Part shown: positions 1,912-60,221 of the stretch, piece by piece
Layout: each line of letters opens with the position of its first letter
Position numbering within the stretch: the first letter of the stretch is position 1
Sequence record: NC_054934.1
Reading direction: 5' to 3' (one strand)
Length of the DNA: 64,000 bases
Source: Escherichia phage teqskov
The notes under the pieces: generated by a model
Told to the model about the DNA's origin: nothing
Seen by the model: only the letters and a program-made list of their open reading frames with translations
Database searches by the model: none
Program-made: the position numbers and the translations under genes

Positions 1912-3005
1912 TAAAAAGTCCCCGCATATAAAGAAGCACGGTTTAACGTGATAATTTCTCTCATAGTAATCTCAAGAGTAAATGTACTAGGGAGGTTTGG
2001 AGCAATAGCTAATCCGTTAAAGTTACCATTAGGTGTTTTATCAAATCTGATGCTCTGTATTTGGCATGGACCAAATATTTCCGTTTTTCCATCAAACTTA
2101 GATGTTGCACCAAAGTTTTTCACCATCCAAATTGTCGGGTTTGAAACTACTAGAACGTTAGTTAAGCTCGATGTCATTTTCTCAAATAGTGTTTTATTTT
2201 TAGCTGCGTCTTCCGGAGATAAAGGTTCAATTAACGTAGAACGATACCAATCATCCAAATACCCCTTTATTTCAGCAGCATATTGAGATTTGCCTGTTTC
2301 ACCATAAGAAAAATAGTTAAAATATTGATAGATATTGATAATAGCCATCAAATCTTCTGTTGAACGTGGAGTCAAATCCCATGTAAACACTTTAGTTCTA
2401 TTCTCAGCACCACCATACATACTTCTGGCTGTCGTATAAATCTGTTCATTATTATCAGCCATTATACCTTGTGTTATACTTTCCAGTGCCCCAAATACTG
2501 CAGTTGAAGCAATATTACTTAACACACCAGTAGCAGTACCTCCGCCTCTGCTGATAAGACTTTCTTGAACATCATTAAATCTATGTGATGATGTATCAAC
2601 GTCAGATTTAGATCTCGGTAAAAGAATGTTTGCGACAGGAGCTTTACTTATTGTTCCTGAATTATTGTTTGATATTAATCCATTTGATAGTTTTGATACT
2701 GTACTACTAATAGTGTTTCTAGCTGTACTTAAAATACTCGAAGATGAAGAAGAGTAGTTAGATCTCATCGATCTAAGACTTCCAGAATCCCTAGATGACA
2801 TATTGTATGCAGTAAATAATAATCCATTCTTATATAGATCTGTTACCTGGAAGTCCCCTGTAGTGTCATTACCACTAGCACGCCCAGTTGGAAACTGGGC
2901 AGTGTATGTTTTAGTTGCTACTTCTGATTTAGTACTCTGTCCGGCTGAAATTTTCTCACCGGACTTTTTAATTAAATCAGCAGTTATTTCTTTAACAATT
3001 GCCAT
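1911..3005 (-). CDS. 48: baseplate tail-tube cap gp48
   Basis: 364 aa, same length as T4 gp48; synteny. Confidence 0.8.
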   Translation of the reverse strand: MAIVKEITADLIKKSGEKISAGQSTKSEVATKTYTAQFPTGRASGNDTTGDFQVTDLYKNGLLFTAYNMSSRDSGSLRSMRSNYSSSSSSILSTARNTISSTVSKLSNGLISNNNSGTISKAPVANILLPRSKSDVDTSSHRFNDVQESLISRGGGTATGVLSNIASTAVFGALESITQGIMADNNEQIYTTARSMYGGAENRTKVFTWDLTPRSTEDLMAIINIYQYFNYFSYGETGKSQYAAEIKGYLDDWYRSTLIEPLSPEDAAKNKTLFEKMTSSLTNVLVVSNPTIWMVKNFGATSKFDGKTEIFGPCQIQSIRFDKTPNGNFNGLAIAPNLPSTFTLEITMREIITLNRASLYAGTF

Positions 3006-3013
3006 ATTATTCC

Positions 3014-4786
3014 TTAATTAACTCCAGTCGCATCAAATACACCAGGAGCAGTCGTGCTCGTTACGGGTGTCATATTATGAACGACAGTATTTTTCTTAAT
3101 AACATTATTAGTATTATTGATCGAAGGAGATGCTTGTTGAACAGGAGCTTGCTGTGCTTTGTTCTTTTCTATTACCTGGACTTGTTTTGCTTCTGGCGAT
3201 TTAGCAGAAGTTTCAGGTTTGGCATTAGGCTGATTTTTCTTGAGCTCTTGATAAGTAGCATCAATTTTAGAAAATCTAGCAGCAAGTTCTTTTTTAACTG
3301 CCGGTGAATTATTTAAATCCGGGTCATCCATCCGTTTTTTAAGGTCTTCATAGGCAGCTTCAACTGATTTAACCGTTGAGTCTTTACTCATATCAGCTGA
3401 ATCAGCATATTTTTCAAAACGAATCATCGCGGCACGGGCTTCATTAGCCTTCATTAAAGCATTTTTTCTTTCTTCAGGTGAAAGTTGCTTTAATTTTTCT
3501 TCTTCTGCTGCGCGTTCTTCATCGGTTGTCAATGCTTCTTTATTATCAACGCCACGAATCCAGTTAGATGCACGAGTTTTCCAATTAGCAATTTTATCTA
3601 ATCCTTTTGCTATCGGACCAAGGTCTCCGTTCATTCGTTTATCTTGATAATTTGCAACTTTTTCCTGGTCTTCTTTATTGAGAGATGCTCCAGTAGAATT
3701 TTGGAAATTTTCTAGTGCTCTTCCTTCTACTTCATCAGCGGTATCCTTCATGCCAGGAATGACTCGAAGAATTGCAGCAGATAATTTAGCCATTCCAAGC
3801 TGAATAAGTTCTCCTAAATTATAAAGAACCTTTCCAAGCCCTTCTACAATAGCTACCGTCAAACCGCCCCAATCTCCCTCTTCCCAGAATTTTTTAATTT
3901 CATCAATAGAACTAAAGATGCTCTGTAATAAAGGACCCCATGTTCCGGTTTCGCTAGAGAATTTAGTAAAGTCTGTACTAAACAAATCCCAAGCCTGCGA
4001 AAATTTATCTGACCAATATTTGAAATGAACCATCAGCAGATCTATTCCAACAACAACAGCCAATATCATTGCAGTCATTTTAGCAGCTTCAATAGCAGCA
4101 CTAACGGTATACTTAAATAGCATGCTTGATATTTTATCAGTAATTGAAATGGATTTCTTAAATCCAAAATCAACAGTCTTTGTTAATTTATCTAAAGCTT
4201 GAGATAATTTTAAGTTAAATGCGTCTTTTTTCTGTTTTTCTTCTGGCGATTCTTGTTTAGGTTCAACTGGCTGAGGGGTAGGGAAAAAATCAGCATCAGG
4301 ATCATTATTAACTGCTTCAGGAGCCGGTAATAAAGGACCCACAGATTCAGCTGTATCGTCCTCAACAACTTTAACAGGAATAGCGCTTTCAACCGTAGCT
4401 AAACTAGTTCCTGTTTGTTGAATTCCAGCTGTCTGAATTTTTTGTTCTAATAAACTCGTTAATTTATCTAATTTGCTTCCGAGTGATTCGCCTATTTCTT
4501 TATTGATATTATTGCCAATTTCAACAGTCTCGGCAATTAACTCAGAACCAGCAGTAGTATCACTCACTGCGCTTTCTACATTGTCAATTGCTCCAATTAT
4601 TTCATTCGATTTTTCTTCGACAGTTTGAGCAATTAATTCAGAAGCAGCTTGAGCATCATCCAATTTCGTAGATATATCGTTAAGTCCAGATAAAGTGTTA
4701 GAAGCGGATTTAGCCGCTTCCTGTGTTGGTTTATTATCTGAAATAACTTTTCTACGCATCGTTTGCATTTCTTGTGGCTTTTTCAT
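3014..4786 (-). CDS. 29: tail tape-measure / baseplate hub protein gp29
   Basis: 590 aa as in T4 gp29; extended low-complexity/coiled regions; synteny. Confidence 0.8.
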   Translation of the reverse strand: MKKPQEMQTMRRKVISDNKPTQEAAKSASNTLSGLNDISTKLDDAQAASELIAQTVEEKSNEIIGAIDNVESAVSDTTAGSELIAETVEIGNNINKEIGESLGSKLDKLTSLLEQKIQTAGIQQTGTSLATVESAIPVKVVEDDTAESVGPLLPAPEAVNNDPDADFFPTPQPVEPKQESPEEKQKKDAFNLKLSQALDKLTKTVDFGFKKSISITDKISSMLFKYTVSAAIEAAKMTAMILAVVVGIDLLMVHFKYWSDKFSQAWDLFSTDFTKFSSETGTWGPLLQSIFSSIDEIKKFWEEGDWGGLTVAIVEGLGKVLYNLGELIQLGMAKLSAAILRVIPGMKDTADEVEGRALENFQNSTGASLNKEDQEKVANYQDKRMNGDLGPIAKGLDKIANWKTRASNWIRGVDNKEALTTDEERAAEEEKLKQLSPEERKNALMKANEARAAMIRFEKYADSADMSKDSTVKSVEAAYEDLKKRMDDPDLNNSPAVKKELAARFSKIDATYQELKKNQPNAKPETSAKSPEAKQVQVIEKNKAQQAPVQQASPSINNTNNVIKKNTVVHNMTPVTSTTAPGVFDATGVN

Positions 4787-48176: not shown

Positions 48177-48434
48177 ATGAAAACTTATAAAGAGTTTGCT
48201 ACAGAAACTATTATCACTGAATCTTCTCATGGTATGGAAGTAAAGCTTGGAATGGCTTTAGCTGAAGCTGAGCGTCTTTTTTCTCGTATTAAAGAACTTG
48301 CTGCTGCAGTCGATCCTTCATCTTTTAAAGGAGACCAAACTAAAGTTAAAGCACTTTTAGCATTATGCTCTGATGCAGGAGAAATCGCTAAGAACGGTTC
48401 TAAGATGAAGAAACGATTAGAAGATTTAAAATAA
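48177..48434 (+). CDS. internal-protein-like small protein with capsid targeting signal (CTS)
   Basis: N-terminus MKTYKEFATE matches the CTS consensus of T4 internal proteins; own early promoter. Confidence 0.6.
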   Translation: MKTYKEFATETIITESSHGMEVKLGMALAEAERLFSRIKELAAAVDPSSFKGDQTKVKALLALCSDAGEIAKNGSKMKKRLEDLK

Positions 48435-48512: not shown

Positions 48513-48746
48513 ATGAAAACGTATCAAGAATTTATTGCTGAAGCTGCTGATGTAAAAGTTGAGTTTATTTACATTGGCAAGAAAGATAAAATGGGCGAAA
48601 TGCCTCATGGAGTTCTTCGTGATGCATTAGATAATTTCGGTCAACTCGGTGGTGAAGAGTTTGGTGATTATTTTGTTATCTATGGACCAGAAAAAGTCAT
48701 CGAGAAATGGGCTGATAAATATAAATCAATTTTTCGTAAAAAATAA
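48513..48746 (+). CDS. internal-protein-like small protein with CTS (IPI-family candidate)
   Basis: ORF-track start 48495 is GTG; ATG at 48513 with GGAGAA upstream gives MKTYQEFIAEA... (77 aa); own early promoter. Confidence 0.6.
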   Translation: MKTYQEFIAEAADVKVEFIYIGKKDKMGEMPHGVLRDALDNFGQLGGEEFGDYFVIYGPEKVIEKWADKYKSIFRKK

Positions 48747-54810: not shown

Positions 54811-55154
54811 ATAAAGTCAAATATTCTCTTCCTGAGGCACTATTAATTCTTGCCGTATCAGCATTTGCAGCTCTTGCAGGTAGTCTTATTGGATTGTTAA
54901 TTGACTGTTTTATTTTAAACATCGACGGCACAGTAATTATAACAGAGGTTTGGAGTGAACTTCGTTTTACTATAGCGATTTCATTATTTTCATTCTTTGG
55001 TACAATGTTATATTTTCATTATGATAATTTTAAAATAAATTGGCAAAGAAAAAAGGATTACAAAATACAATTAAAGGAATATAATAGCTACATGTCTTAT
55101 ATTGAAAAAGAATCAATGGAAGAGTTTGTGAGTGATTGTAGGAAAATTAAATGA
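54792..55154 (+). CDS. small membrane protein, paralogue family member (C-terminus EFVSDCRKIK)
   Basis: two hydrophobic helices, basic segment, conserved tail. Confidence 0.55.
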   Translation: MQKPKLNKVKYSLPEALLILAVSAFAALAGSLIGLLIDCFILNIDGTVIITEVWSELRFTIAISLFSFFGTMLYFHYDNFKINWQRKKDYKIQLKEYNSYMSYIEKESMEEFVSDCRKIK

Positions 55155-55639
55155 TTTTAAAAACTCGCTGGTATGATTTAGATGATGGGGACGATGGCAT
55201 TTCAGTTGATAGAGTTGATTGGAGTGGCTGTTCTGAAGATACAAAGAAACGATTAATTAGGGAGTTTAGAATGGGATATCAAGCAGCTAAGCCATCTACT
55301 GTAACAGATGATAAATTCGTGTGTATTCAAAATGGTCGTGCTAAGTTAACGAACGCTGATTGGTTCACAGATAAGAAGGTTATTCTGTGGTATATTATTA
55401 GTTTTCCTGTGACATCATTTGTATTTTGCTTCTTTGGAGAAAGTCCAGTAGGCAGAACGGAAGATTGGATTCTTTTAATTATACTTGTTAATATTTTTAC
55501 AGCAACAGTACTATCAGGAATATGGTGCGTGTTCATTGAAATGCCATGGCGGTTACGTAGGCAGCAAAAGATTTTTGATGAAAAGAAATATACTCAAAAT
55601 TTAAATAATTTTATCACTGAATGCAGGAAATTAAAATGA
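55151..55639 (+). CDS. small membrane protein, paralogue family member (C-terminus NFITECRKLK)
   Basis: two hydrophobic helices, basic segment, conserved tail. Confidence 0.55.
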   Translation: MILKTRWYDLDDGDDGISVDRVDWSGCSEDTKKRLIREFRMGYQAAKPSTVTDDKFVCIQNGRAKLTNADWFTDKKVILWYIISFPVTSFVFCFFGESPVGRTEDWILLIILVNIFTATVLSGIWCVFIEMPWRLRRQQKIFDEKKYTQNLNNFITECRKLK

Positions 55640-56076
55640 AAACATTATCAGCTGGTATTATCTTTATGACAGAAGATAAAGATTTATTTATGGGACGAGT
55701 TACTGGTTCTCGTAAGCCTGGAATGATGGCACATCGCTGGGATATTCCAAAGGGGCGTGTAGAAAATTCTGATTTAAGCGCATTAGATGCAGCACGAAGA
55801 GAATGCTCAGAAGAGACTGGTTTTAACAATTATAATCCAGACCTTCTAGAAGACCTAGGTGTATTTAAATATTCTAGTAATAAAGACTTACAGTTATTTT
55901 ATTATACGATTCCAGTAGAGCATGAGATGTTCAGAAATTGCCATTGCGAGTCTTATTTTGAAAATAAAGATGGTGTTATGATTCCAGAGATGGATGCTTT
56001 TGCCCTTATTCCTCGTACTCAGTGGCAATATGTGATGGGTCCTTCACTTTACCGAATAATGAACAGCCTCTTTTAA
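55621..56076 (+). CDS. nudE: Nudix hydrolase NudE
   Basis: Nudix box G-x5-E-x7-R-E-C-S-E-E-T-G (KGRVENSDLSALDAARRECSEETGF); 151 aa; alternative start at 55636 is translationally coupled to the upstream gene. Confidence 0.85.
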   Translation: MQEIKMKTLSAGIIFMTEDKDLFMGRVTGSRKPGMMAHRWDIPKGRVENSDLSALDAARRECSEETGFNNYNPDLLEDLGVFKYSSNKDLQLFYYTIPVEHEMFRNCHCESYFENKDGVMIPEMDAFALIPRTQWQYVMGPSLYRIMNSLF

Positions 56077-56607
<531 letters not shown>

Positions 56608-56666
56608 AGTTGTTTACTTTCTCCTAGAATTGTGATAGTATATTCACAGTTACTTGGAGGGATAAA

Positions 56667-57083
56667 ATGACTCGTATTAATTTGACTTTAGTATCTGAAC
56701 TTGCTGATCAACATTTAATCGCAGAATACCGTGAATTGCCACGTGTTTTTGGTATAGTTCGTAAGCATGTGGCAAACGGTAAGCGCGTTAAAGATTTTAA
56801 AATATCTTCCGAGTTTATTTTAGGTTCTGGTCATGTTACGTTCTTTTACGATAAGTTAGAATTTTTGCGAAAGCGTCAATTAGACATTATAACGGAATGC
56901 TTAAAACGAGGGTTCAGTATAAAAGATACTGAAGTTCCTGACATCAGCGATATTCCAGTAGAATGGAAAAATGATTATAATCCATGCAAATCAGCTATTA
57001 AATTGAGTCAACAACGACTTGATGAAAAAATTTTAATGAAACCACATTGGTATAAGTATTACGGTAAAAATATTTACATTTAA
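56667..57083 (+). CDS. denV: endonuclease V (pyrimidine-dimer DNA glycosylase) DenV
   Basis: 138 aa; [17 protein letters not shown]... recognised. Confidence 0.9.
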
Positions 57084-57092
57084 AGGAAACAT

Positions 57093-57566
57093 ATGAAAAC
57101 ATATCAAGAATTTATCACTGAAGCAGCTATTAATTCTCAAATTATTGCTGAATCTTTTACCGATCTTTTGAAATTTAAAAAAGGTCAAAAAATCACTGCT
57201 GTATTGGATGATGGTACAGAAGTTGAGATGGATGTACAGGGATATAATTATGCAGTAGATGGAAAACTGTATAATAAATCTCATGCTAAATTTGATTCAT
57301 TTGACGACTTTGTTAATACAGTTGAAGATGAAAAAACTCGTAGATCCATTGCAACTGGTGATGCTAAGGTTCTTATGGCACATGGTCATGAACGCATTCG
57401 CGCTAAACAGAATAAAATGGGTGAAGATAATTTTGCATTAGTTGGTTATCAATCTGGTAAACAAACTTATGGCTATCAACGTACTGCTACCATGTATAAT
57501 AAAAATGGTAAAATCGCTTTCGTGAATAGTAAAGGTTCTATTCAGTACGTTAAATCGTTCAAATAA
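57093..57566 (+). CDS. CTS-bearing internal protein (ipII/ipIII locus), 157 aa
   Basis: N-terminus MKTYQEFITEAAINSQIIAE; position after denV corresponds to T4 ipII/ipIII. Confidence 0.6.
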   Translation: MKTYQEFITEAAINSQIIAESFTDLLKFKKGQKITAVLDDGTEVEMDVQGYNYAVDGKLYNKSHAKFDSFDDFVNTVEDEKTRRSIATGDAKVLMAHGHERIRAKQNKMGEDNFALVGYQSGKQTYGYQRTATMYNKNGKIAFVNSKGSIQYVKSFK

Positions 57567-57707
57567 TATGGGAACAACCTGGACCTCATGATTCTATGAG
57601 GGATTCCCGCCAACCTGTAATAAGGTCGAGCCTGAGTGCGGTAATGGGTAAATACAGAAATGGACAATTCATGCGCCACGGAATGGCCCAAATTTAGAGA
57701 GAATAAA

Positions 57708-58247
57708 ATGAGAACATTTTTAACTGGTCCTTATCTATCCCTGATGAATGCTTTTACACACCATTCTGACGCTAGAGTAGAAGAAATTTGTAAAAACGAA
57801 TATATCCCGCCATTTGAAGAATTACTTAAACAGTACTGCACACTTCGACTAGATGGTGGACGTCAATCTGGTAAATCAACTGCAGTAACTAATTTTGCCG
57901 CTAATTGGTTGTATGACGGTGGAACAGTTATTGTTCTTTCTAATACTTCAGCTTACGCTAAAATTTCTGCAAATAACATTAAAAAGGAATTTTCGCGTTA
58001 TTCTAATGATGATATACGTTTTCGTTTATTTACTGATTCTGTACGCAGTTTTATTGGTAATAAAGGAAGTAAGTTCAGAGGTTTATCGCTTTCGCGAATT
58101 TTGTATATAATTGACGAGCCTGTCAAATCTCCTGATATGGATAAGATTTATAGTGTCCATATTGACACTGTACACTGCTGCTGTAATATTAAATGTTGTA
58201 TTGGTGGTATTACTCGTCCACAGTTTTTCGTAATCGGAATGCAATGA
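57708..58247 (+). CDS. small P-loop NTPase (Walker A GGRQSGKST, Walker B ILYIIDEP)
   Basis: ATG at 57708 with GAGAGAA upstream (the ORF track extends to an ATG at 57660); Walker motifs read directly. Confidence 0.55.
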   Translation: MRTFLTGPYLSLMNAFTHHSDARVEEICKNEYIPPFEELLKQYCTLRLDGGRQSGKSTAVTNFAANWLYDGGTVIVLSNTSAYAKISANNIKKEFSRYSNDDIRFRLFTDSVRSFIGNKGSKFRGLSLSRILYIIDEPVKSPDMDKIYSVHIDTVHCCCNIKCCIGGITRPQFFVIGMQ

Positions 58248-58573
58248 TGACAGACACTCAGCTTTTCGAATATCTTTATTTTTCGCCAAAAACTATTAAA
58301 AATAAATTGGTGAATCATTTTGAAATTTTGGCAAATAATAACACTTTGAGCGAATTTTATCCCAAGCAATACAAATTACAAAAAGGTATATTCAAAGGAT
58401 GCAGAGTTTTGTGCACTGCTCCTAATGCACGGCTAATGAATAAAATTCCATATTTTACCATGGAATTTATTGATGGACCTTTTAAAGGATTAATTACCCA
58501 AAGTTTAATGGCATATGATTCTGAGCCATTTTTAATTAAAGAACAATCTTGGATAAATTTATTTTCTAATTGA
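58244..58573 (+). CDS. hypothetical protein (109 aa) translationally coupled to the P-loop NTPase
   Basis: ATGATGA start/stop overlap at 58244-58250. Confidence 0.5.
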
Positions 58574-58580
58574 GGTTTAT

Positions 58581-58943
58581 ATGAAAGCATATCAAATTCT
58601 TGAAGGCACACATAAAGGCACTATTTATTTTGAAGATGGTATTCAAGCACGAATTATTGTCTCTAAAACCTTTAAAGAGGACTCTTTTGTAGACCCAGAA
58701 ATTTTCTACGGTTTGCATGCCCGTGAAATTGAAATTGAGCCACAGCCTACAGTTAAAATTGAAGGTGGTCAACACCTGAACGTTAACGTTCTGCGTCGTG
58801 AAACTCTGGAAGATGCAGTTAAGCATCCGGAAAAATATCCGCAGCTGACCATCCGTGTATCCGGTTATGCAGTTCGCTTTAACTCTCTGACTCCGGAACA
58901 GCAGCGCGACGTTATCGCTCGTACCTTCACCGAGAGTTTGTAA
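58581..58943 (+). CDS. autonomous glycyl-radical cofactor (GrcA/YfiD-like)
   Basis: C-terminal [29 protein letters not shown] contains the glycyl-radical motif RVSGY; 3' half has host-like GC and codon usage. Confidence 0.8.
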
Positions 58944-59164
58944 TGGCAAAGATAATTATTGAAGGTTCTAAAGATGTGCTAAATGCTTTCGCCGAGTGGT
59001 TTAGTAATTCAGGCGAACAGCAATTTAACGAAGCGTGGAATATGGGTGATATTGATGGAATTTATCCTACTACAGAAATTTCTGTTCAGGGATATGGCAT
59101 TCATGAACCTATTCGTTTAGTTGAATACGATTTATGTACTGGTGAGGAAGTCAAATATGATTGA
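58943..59164 (+). CDS. hypothetical protein (73 aa)
   Basis: ATG overlapping previous stop. Confidence 0.5.
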   Translation: MAKIIIEGSKDVLNAFAEWFSNSGEQQFNEAWNMGDIDGIYPTTEISVQGYGIHEPIRLVEYDLCTGEEVKYD

Positions 59165-59453
59165 AGATATTAAAGGTTATAAGCCACATACCGACGAAAA
59201 AATCGGTAAAGTAAATGCTATTAAAGACGCTGAAGTTCGTTTAGGACTTATCTTTGATGCTTTATACGATGAATTTTGGGAAGCATTTGATAGCTGTGAA
59301 GATGATGAACTCGCGAAGAATTACGCCGAAAGCCTCGATCAGTTAACTATTGCTAAACGAAACTCAAAGAAGCCAGTATGTGGGCTTGTCGTGCAGTGTT
59401 CCAACCAGAGGAAAAATACTAATGGCTCAATTAAGTGCAGGGTTTGGTTATGA
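59157..59453 (+). CDS. hypothetical protein (about 98 aa)
   Basis: ATG at 59157 overlapping previous stop (ATGA); ORF-track start 59121. Confidence 0.45.
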
Positions 59454-59700
59454 GTATTATACTGCCCCTCGTCGTGTATCTGTCGCTCCTAAGAAAATTC
59501 AAAGTCTTGATGACTTCCAGGAAGTAGTCCGTAAAGCTTTCCAGGACTATGCACGTTATCTTAAAGAAGATTCACAGGACTGTCTCGAAGAAGATGAAAT
59601 TGCTTACTATGAGCAGCGTCTTGAACAGCTTAAAAACTTACATGAGGTTCGTGCAGAAGTTTCAAAGTCTATGAATAAATTGATTAGATTTAAAGAATAA
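59422..59700 (+). CDS. hypothetical protein (about 92 aa)
   Basis: ATG at 59422 with GAGG upstream; overlaps 3' end of previous ORF in another frame. Confidence 0.45.
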
Positions 59701-59702
59701 CT

Positions 59703-59732
59703 GTTTACTTTTCCTCTTGACTGTGGTATAAT
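59703..59732 (+). promoter_or_regulatory. T4-type early promoter (GTTTAC-N18-TATAAT) for regB
   Basis: -35 GTTTAC at 59703, -10 TATAAT at 59727, ATG at 59760. Confidence 0.7.
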
Positions 59733-59759
59733 TTTTCTATCAGTTAAGAGGAGAATAAC

Positions 59760-60221
59760 ATGACTATCAATACAGAAGTTTTTATCCGTCGAAATAAGCT
59801 TCGTCGTCACTTTGAGTCGGAGTTTCGTCAAATTAACAATGAGATTCGTGAGGCATCAAAAGCAGCAGGAGTCTCATCGTTTCATCTAAAATATTCTCAA
59901 CATCTTCTTGATCGTGCAATTCAACGGGAGATTGATGAGACATATGTTTTTGAATTATTCCATAAAATAAAAGACCATGTTTTAGAAGTTAATGAATTCC
60001 TGAGTATGCCTCCGCGTCCTGACATTGACGAGGATTTTATTGATGGGGTTGAATATCGTCCTGGACGTTTAGAAATCACAGATGGAAATCTTTGGCTTGG
60101 ATTTACGGTTTGTAAGCCTAATGAGAAGTTCAAAAACCCGTCACTTCAATGCAGGATGGCAATTATCAACAGTCGTCGTTTACCAGGAAAGGCTTCTAAA
60201 GCAGTAATTAAAACTCAATGA
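59760..60221 (+). CDS. regB: RegB endoribonuclease
   Basis: 153 aa; MTINTEVFIRRNKLRRHFESEF recognised; own early promoter. Confidence 0.8.
   Translation: MTINTEVFIRRNKLRRHFESEFRQINNEIREASKAAGVSSFHLKYSQHLLDRAIQREIDETYVFELFHKIKDHVLEVNEFLSMPPRPDIDEDFIDGVEYRPGRLEITDGNLWLGFTVCKPNEKFKNPSLQCRMAIINSRRLPGKASKAVIKTQ

Follow-up and report, generated by a model that had tools for sequence, protein, structure and literature searches.

The ip4 gene downstream of denV

The window, by which we mean the whole stretch of 64,000 nt from Escherichia phage teqskov (NC_054934.1) that was analysed, carries a single ORF of 157 codons right after denV, as an earlier note on this DNA had claimed, and its translation starts as described there. 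The genes at this position are:

56113..56607, + strand: e, the lysozyme gene, upstream of denV, as is nudE
56667..57083, + strand: denV, endonuclease V (Pfam Pyr_excise), directly upstream of ip4
57093..57566, + strand: ip4 (ipIV), 157 aa plus stop codon, ATG start, translation starting MKTYQEFITEAAINSQIIAE

According to the ORF list, the ip4 start codon lies 9 nt past the denV stop codon; an AGGAA Shine-Dalgarno sequence is found 5 nt upstream of the start. This is clearly a real gene and not a chance ORF, because the product matches the Pfam family DUF7412 (PF24183) over its full length (319.4 bits against a cut-off of 27; 5.7e-96), because it is matched in 469 phage records (tblastn), and because dN/dS relative to the orthologues from Klebsiella and Salmonella phages is about 0.10, a rough value as dS is saturated. 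Even on this rough estimate, comparison of the coding sequences shows that purifying selection acts on ip4. Residues 1-157 align to positions 1-158 of the DUF7412 profile, and a further full-length match is to PHROG 3155, “internal virion protein” (339 bits; 6e-102).

The protein is 100% identical to the “ipIV internal virion protein” of phage T2 (YP_010073775), and it is at least 99% identical in 289 of the matching records, including those of RB-series phages, PP01, wV7, Shfl2 and several BASEL phages. In the viral structure library, only one match is meaningful, namely that to UniProt Q38388, “Ip4 [Enterobacteria phage K3]”, with 99% identity. Labels in GenBank are inconsistent and include ipIV, Ip4 (the name of the entries in phages RB32 and RB51), “internal head protein II”, “IpIII internal head protein” and “hypothetical protein”. 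The numbering Ip1-Ip10 is credited to Repoila et al. 1994 in a passage of Silas et al. 2025 (PMC12373910). Judged by sequence identity, the ORF is the known and named internal head protein Ip4 (ipIV) of T-even phages, and is ordinary rather than new. The proteins of T2, K3 and the RB phages agree with it over all 157 residues (99-100% identity) and are encoded at the same locus downstream of e; the difference lies in the neighbours only, as T2 and Bas44 are without denV while Bas41 has an extra ORF of 105 aa. The 5-kb surroundings of ip4 are 98.4% identical to phage AndreasVesalius (Bas42), with the same gene order. The window is from a T2-like Tequatrovirus, where Ip4 is ordinary, and the identification itself adds little, as the gene already has a name and an annotation in T2, K3, the RB phages and hundreds of other genomes.

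A mosaic locus between e and vs.8

In the direction of transcription, the gene orders compared are:

T4: nudE-e-ipIII-ipII-denV-vs.8
teqskov window and Bas42: nudE-e-denV-ip4-vs.8
T2 and Bas44: e-ip4-vs.8, no denV
Bas41: denV-(105-aa targeted ORF)-ip4
Klebsiella phage Kpn6N: e-ip4-ipIII
Klebsiella phage W2-7: ip4, ipII and ipIII in a row
Salmonella phage STML-198: e-ip4-(87-aa “internal head protein”)

The earlier note had placed the ORF where T4 carries ipII and ipIII. This has to be corrected, as the T4 pair lies upstream of denV while ip4 lies downstream of it, so that the variable locus is the same but the slot is another. The gene was found inside the e-to-vs.8 locus in every phage examined (T2, Bas41, Bas42, Bas44, Kpn6N and STML-198), and in the Klebsiella phages it adjoins ipII and/or ipIII rather than replacing them. 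Because the gene orders vary across the phages compared, ip4 is best described, at the level of gene arrangement, as one cassette of a mix-and-match array between e and vs.8 and not as a substitute in the ipII/ipIII slot. Nor is it an unusual cassette: Ip4 is matched in 469 phage records, IpIII in 261 and IpII in 198, so that by matching records it is the commoner one.

The borders of the exchanged DNA follow from comparison with T4. Identity is 94.6% at window positions 55005-56656, through e and 49 nt beyond, and 96.2% at 57566-60000, from the last 4 nt of T4 denV on. Between these flanks, a 1.5-kb ipIII-ipII-denV segment of T4 corresponds to a 0.9-kb denV-ip4 segment in teqskov. By sequence comparison, denV and ip4 together (window 56657-57565) are one mosaic block of different ancestry, because DenV shares only 107 of 138 residues with its T4 counterpart, whereas nucleotide identity to T4 reaches 95-96% in the flanks.

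Nucleotide identity of denV to T4 drops along the gene from about 85% to about 55%, and T2 lacks exactly the teqskov denV segment.

Two short elements may bear on how such cassettes are exchanged:

56612..56645, + strand: between e and denV, an element resembling T4 early promoters (GTTTAC ... TAGTAT), accompanied by a weak inverted repeat
57065..57124, + strand: conserved ip 5' DNA, made up of the propeptide codons and some 28 nt before them with the ribosome binding site; the final codons of denV fall within it

The first is homologous to the T4 e-ipIII intergenic sequence, and elements of this kind at internal-protein loci have been described (PMC2839356). The second is 95% identical to the 5' region of T4 ipII and 94% identical to that of ipIII, the remaining part of ip4 being unrelated, and it is the only stretch within the denV-ip4 segment that matches T4 well. 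T-even internal-protein genes have been known since 1994 to be shuffled at two loci. These variable loci are located next to 57B or downstream of e, and it has been proposed that short conserved sequences confine the shuffling to them (PMC2839356). The position of ip4 is the latter of the two, and the shared 5' DNA together with the intergenic promoter and stem-loop elements fits the published idea.

In phage FriedrichZschokke (Bas41), the 105-aa ORF between denV and ip4 (excerpt 267-584) is annotated as hypothetical and has a propeptide of its own, MKTYQEFIAE.

The internal-protein set of the phage

Two further internal-protein genes are found at the second locus:

48177..48434, + strand: ip5 (85 aa, MKTYKEFATE...), next to 57B; PHROG 3499
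48513..48746, + strand: ip6-like gene (77 aa, MKTYQEFIAE...); PHROG 8111

The ip5 product is 100% identical to the “internal head protein IP5” of wV7 and 95% identical to T2 ip5, and that of the ip6-like gene is 84% identical to VR7 ip6. The two genes stand in place of T4 ipI at the 57B locus. The earlier note was right that the internal-protein repertoire is unlike that of T4: Ip4, Ip5 and an Ip6-like protein (the latter two at 48.2-48.7 kb) are encoded, as against IPI, IPII and IPIII in T4. The correct label is a T2-like set of Ip4, Ip5 and Ip6-like, without Ip2 and Ip3 within the window. On the basis of published work, the phage is therefore predicted to be sensitive to GmrSD from ECOR17 and from ECOR21. 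At the same 57B/ipI locus in phage Bas37, one of the two genes encodes an inhibitor of McrBC (bioRxiv 10.1101/2025.11.20.689424).

Propeptide, predicted processing and the mature protein

The product of ip4 can be divided into three parts:

57093..57122, + strand: capsid targeting sequence (propeptide, aa 1-10, MKTYQEFITE), with the gp21 motif I-T-E ending at E10
57123..57152, + strand: aa 11-20 (AAINSQIIAE), probably a second part of the propeptide, with the L/I-X-E motif I-A-E20 at its end
57153..57563, + strand: predicted mature Ip4 (aa 21-157), 137 aa, 15.5 kDa, computed pI 9.3

The targeting sequence differs from the MKTYQEFIAE of T4 IPII and IPIII only at position 9, which is the X of L/I-X-E. 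In T4, residues 4 and 7 serve targeting and residues 8 and 10 processing (Mullaney and Black, reviewed in PMC9026906), and the corresponding Y4, F7, I8 and E10 are all kept, as is characteristic of internal-protein propeptides. The first ten residues of IPIII suffice in T4 to bring a foreign protein into the prohead core (PMC9026906). The motif of the prohead protease gp21 (L/I-X-E) occurs twice, as I8-T9-E10 and as I18-A19-E20. Two cuts are indicated because E10 and E20, each following [ILM]-x, are invariant in 14 of 14 aligned homologues down to 61% identity, while the residues between them diverge; on this pattern, a second cut by gp21 after E20 is probable. The AlphaFold model is disordered at residues 10-20 (pLDDT below 50). 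IPI is also cut twice. Neither virion proteomics nor N-terminal sequencing of Ip4 turned up in a search of the literature.

In the 14 homologues the core of the protein is conserved, with many invariant residues. AlphaFold2 predicts an alpha/beta fold with fair confidence (pLDDT 78.8, pTM 0.73), for which Foldseek found no match in the PDB at E <= 0.001, and profile searches of PDB sequences and NCBIfam also gave no match. The fold, as modelled, is without known relative.

Comparison with T4 IPII and IPIII

The sizes of T4 IPII and IPIII had been given correctly in the earlier note (100 and 193 aa), and the difference of the ORF from both, which it had postulated from size, stands now that alignments have been run: neither protein shows high full-length identity to Ip4. 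With the complete sequences, BLASTP gives an alignment of 77 aa with IPII (31% identity, E 7e-7), and the one with IPIII is confined to residues 1-13. When the propeptides are removed and the mature parts compared, no similarity is left (E 0.61 against IPII and 4.5 against IPIII). That the ORF is a diverged orthologue of IPII or IPIII, as the full-length score against IPII and the GenBank records labelled “internal head protein II” or “IpIII” might be taken to indicate, is ruled out for practical purposes by the propeptide-free BLASTP, as the score stems from the common propeptide; moreover, Ip4 belongs to other Pfam and PHROG families, and in Klebsiella phage W2-7 the three genes occur side by side.

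What the three proteins have in common is the near-identical 10-residue targeting sequence with the upstream ribosome-binding DNA, the variable e-to-vs.8 locus, and a basic mature protein, with a pI of 9.3 for Ip4 that is close to those of IPII (9.6) and IPIII (9.7). They differ in length, in mature sequence and in place, the T4 genes being upstream of denV. Furthermore, the targets of IPII and IPIII are established as the GmrSD of ECOR21 (Ip2) and of ECOR17 (Ip3) (PMC12373910), whereas none is assigned to Ip4.

Distribution and distant homologues

The Ip4 family is narrow. A word-indexed search among 5.8 billion proteins identified 14 clusters, with at least 61% identity, and when 1.84 billion representatives were searched exhaustively with an HMM, three more distant homologues, all full-length, came to light. 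One of the distant homologues is encoded on a 381-kb IMG/VR contig (IMGVR_UViG_3300011242_000001) and is about 35% identical (tblastn); it starts with MNFEQFLNES, a propeptide-like N-terminus that ends in L-N-E. This suggests, from the sequence, that the DUF7412 cargo domain has been joined to the propeptide of another lineage. Another distant homologue had no match among sequenced phages.

On an excerpt of the same contig (1005-4474), four ORFs within 3.5 kb, including the Ip4 homologue, share the N-terminus M-[NKS]-F-x-x-F-L-N-E. Judged by sequence, a very large phage seems to have an analogous propeptide system here.

Expression signals

Late-promoter sequences are located upstream of e:

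56079..56099, + strand: two T4 late-promoter boxes TATAAATA (at 56079 and 56092), exact motif matches

T4 has the same pair of TATAAATA boxes at the same place, and these are the only exact late boxes in its e-ipIII-ipII-denV block. No exact late promoter for ip4 was found inside denV, where there are only TATAAATA sites with one mismatch (TATAAGTA at 57051 and TAAAAATA at 57065), and no terminator-like site was found on the + strand between the boxes and ip4. Late transcripts of e-denV-ip4 probably start at the boxes upstream of e, and would reach ip4 by read-through.

Function and alternative explanations

Of several explanations for this gene, we favour with good confidence one where Ip4 is an interchangeable head protein that is packaged, processed and injected, and that most likely disables one host defence. 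The steps are all inferred from established T4 biology. The precursor would be made late in infection, probably on transcripts that start at the late promoters before e and read through, and would be bound to the scaffolding core of the prohead through its N-terminal ten residues. The prohead protease gp21 would then cut it after E10, and probably again after E20, so that the basic mature protein (about 15.5 kDa) would stay in the head with the DNA and be injected into the next host. There, by analogy only, it would bind and disable one specific host defence that attacks incoming glucosyl-hydroxymethylcytosine DNA.

The analogy is with proteins of the same kind. Ip1, Ip2 and Ip3 inhibit one GmrSD type IV restriction enzyme each, a different one in every case, and do not protect against one another's targets (PMC12373910), and IPIII still works from a plasmid without its targeting sequence, and so acts in the cytoplasm (PMC9391042). 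T4 IPI*, which inhibits the GmrSD of E. coli CT596, and the McrBC inhibitor Bas37_0260 (bioRxiv 10.1101/2025.11.20.689424) are both capsid-targeted and injected with the DNA and may serve as a model for Ip4, although they are encoded at the other locus, next to 57B, and Ip4 at e-to-vs.8. Outside the propeptide, IPI is reportedly without homology to IPII and IPIII (bioRxiv 10.1101/2025.11.20.689424); no IPI* structure is among the PDB fold matches listed for Ip4. The earlier note had called the internal-protein repertoire relevant to anti-restriction, and for Ip4 the likeness to Ip1-3 (PMC12373910) makes this a reasonable analogy; by the same comparison, Ip4 probably blocks some host defence against incoming modified DNA.

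As to which defence this might be, ip4-10 gave no reproducible inhibition when tried against a panel of GmrSD systems (PMC12373910, Supplementary Fig. 9), a result that applies to the teqskov protein in so far as the common nomenclature equates it with the “ip4” of that study. T2 is restricted by the GmrSD of both ECOR17 and ECOR21 (PMC12373910), and these two are not Ip4 targets, because T2 encodes an identical Ip4 and is restricted nevertheless. A more specific proposal, which we put forward tentatively and rate at somewhat below an even chance, is that Ip4 is a specific injected inhibitor of a defence not yet tied to internal proteins, such as a type IV system outside the screened GmrSD variants or a non-restriction sensor of incoming DNA, and that DUF7412 is an old portable cargo which each lineage has provided with its own head-targeting signal. 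The idea of a portable cargo is put forward because the homologue on the 381-kb contig sits among four genes that share an M-x-F-x-x-F-L-N-E N-terminus. The question of the target is already recognised in the literature, and the window makes the target no more tractable; once found, it would explain part of T-even host range, because Ip4 is matched in more records than IpIII and IpII (469 vs 261 and 198).

The first alternative is that Ip4 is a general basic head filler, which neutralises the charge of the DNA or acts in its condensation or ejection, and has no specific host target. Such a role would agree with the basic mature protein (pI 9.3, like IPII and IPIII), with the many copies of internal proteins per head (PMC9026906) and with a GmrSD screen that gave no target for Ip4. 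However, the many invariant non-basic residues in the core and a dN/dS of about 0.1 indicate more constraint than a role in charge alone would need, and the presence or absence of ip4 and the shuffling of its cassette are typical of accessory counter-defence genes. Furthermore, the three internal proteins of T4 were once viewed in this way and have all proved to be specific inhibitors. We thus regard a filler as unlikely.

It is less probable still that Ip4 is an injected enzyme that modifies a host component, like the ADP-ribosyltransferase Alt, rather than a protein that binds a nuclease. The invariant polar residues D47, H64, H99, R101, E111 and D112 could form an active site, and the domain is conserved as far as the 381-kb metagenomic phage contig, but mature Ip4 is small, with only 137 aa, and no enzyme family resembling it was found in Pfam, in NCBIfam, or among the sequences and structures of the PDB.

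It is very improbable that the targeting sequence is only left over from recombination at the conserved ip 5' DNA, and that Ip4 stays unpackaged and acts only in the infected cell. The propeptide codons do lie within the first 60 nt, a recombination-prone conserved segment common to unrelated ip genes; however, both cleavage motifs have been kept in the protein where the DNA and the intervening residues have diverged (61-70% identity), the distant homologue has a different propeptide-like N-terminus that likewise ends in L-N-E, and ten residues alone suffice in T4 to package foreign proteins (PMC9026906).

Other observations on the surrounding genes

In the T2 RefSeq record NC_054931, the “nudE” CDS (excerpt 2942-3913, 972 nt) runs through e and ends with it, which looks like an annotation error. 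The e.2 gene (window 55151-55639) is a 162-aa ORF with predicted hydrophobic segments; the T4 annotation has 102 aa owing to a 1-nt difference at 55439.

The G+C-richer stretch downstream of ip4 (57567-57707) was considered as a candidate for a structured RNA and rejected, since its folding is no better than that of shuffled sequences (z = -0.19). A search of Rfam gave only a sub-threshold snoRNA match, which lies inside the ip4 ORF. What lies there is just the beginning of vs.8 as in T4, but with an 8-bp deletion. This deletion in the vs.8 homologue (57596-58247), corresponding to T4 nt 111-118 of the gene, splits it into a 33-aa ORF (57596..57697) and one of 179 aa (57708..58247), whose first residue corresponds to Met41 of T4. 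In T2 and Bas42, the reading frame is broken by other indels, again within the first ~120 nt of vs.8. The annotated start of T4 vs.8 may be too early, or the N-terminus of the gene product may be decaying.
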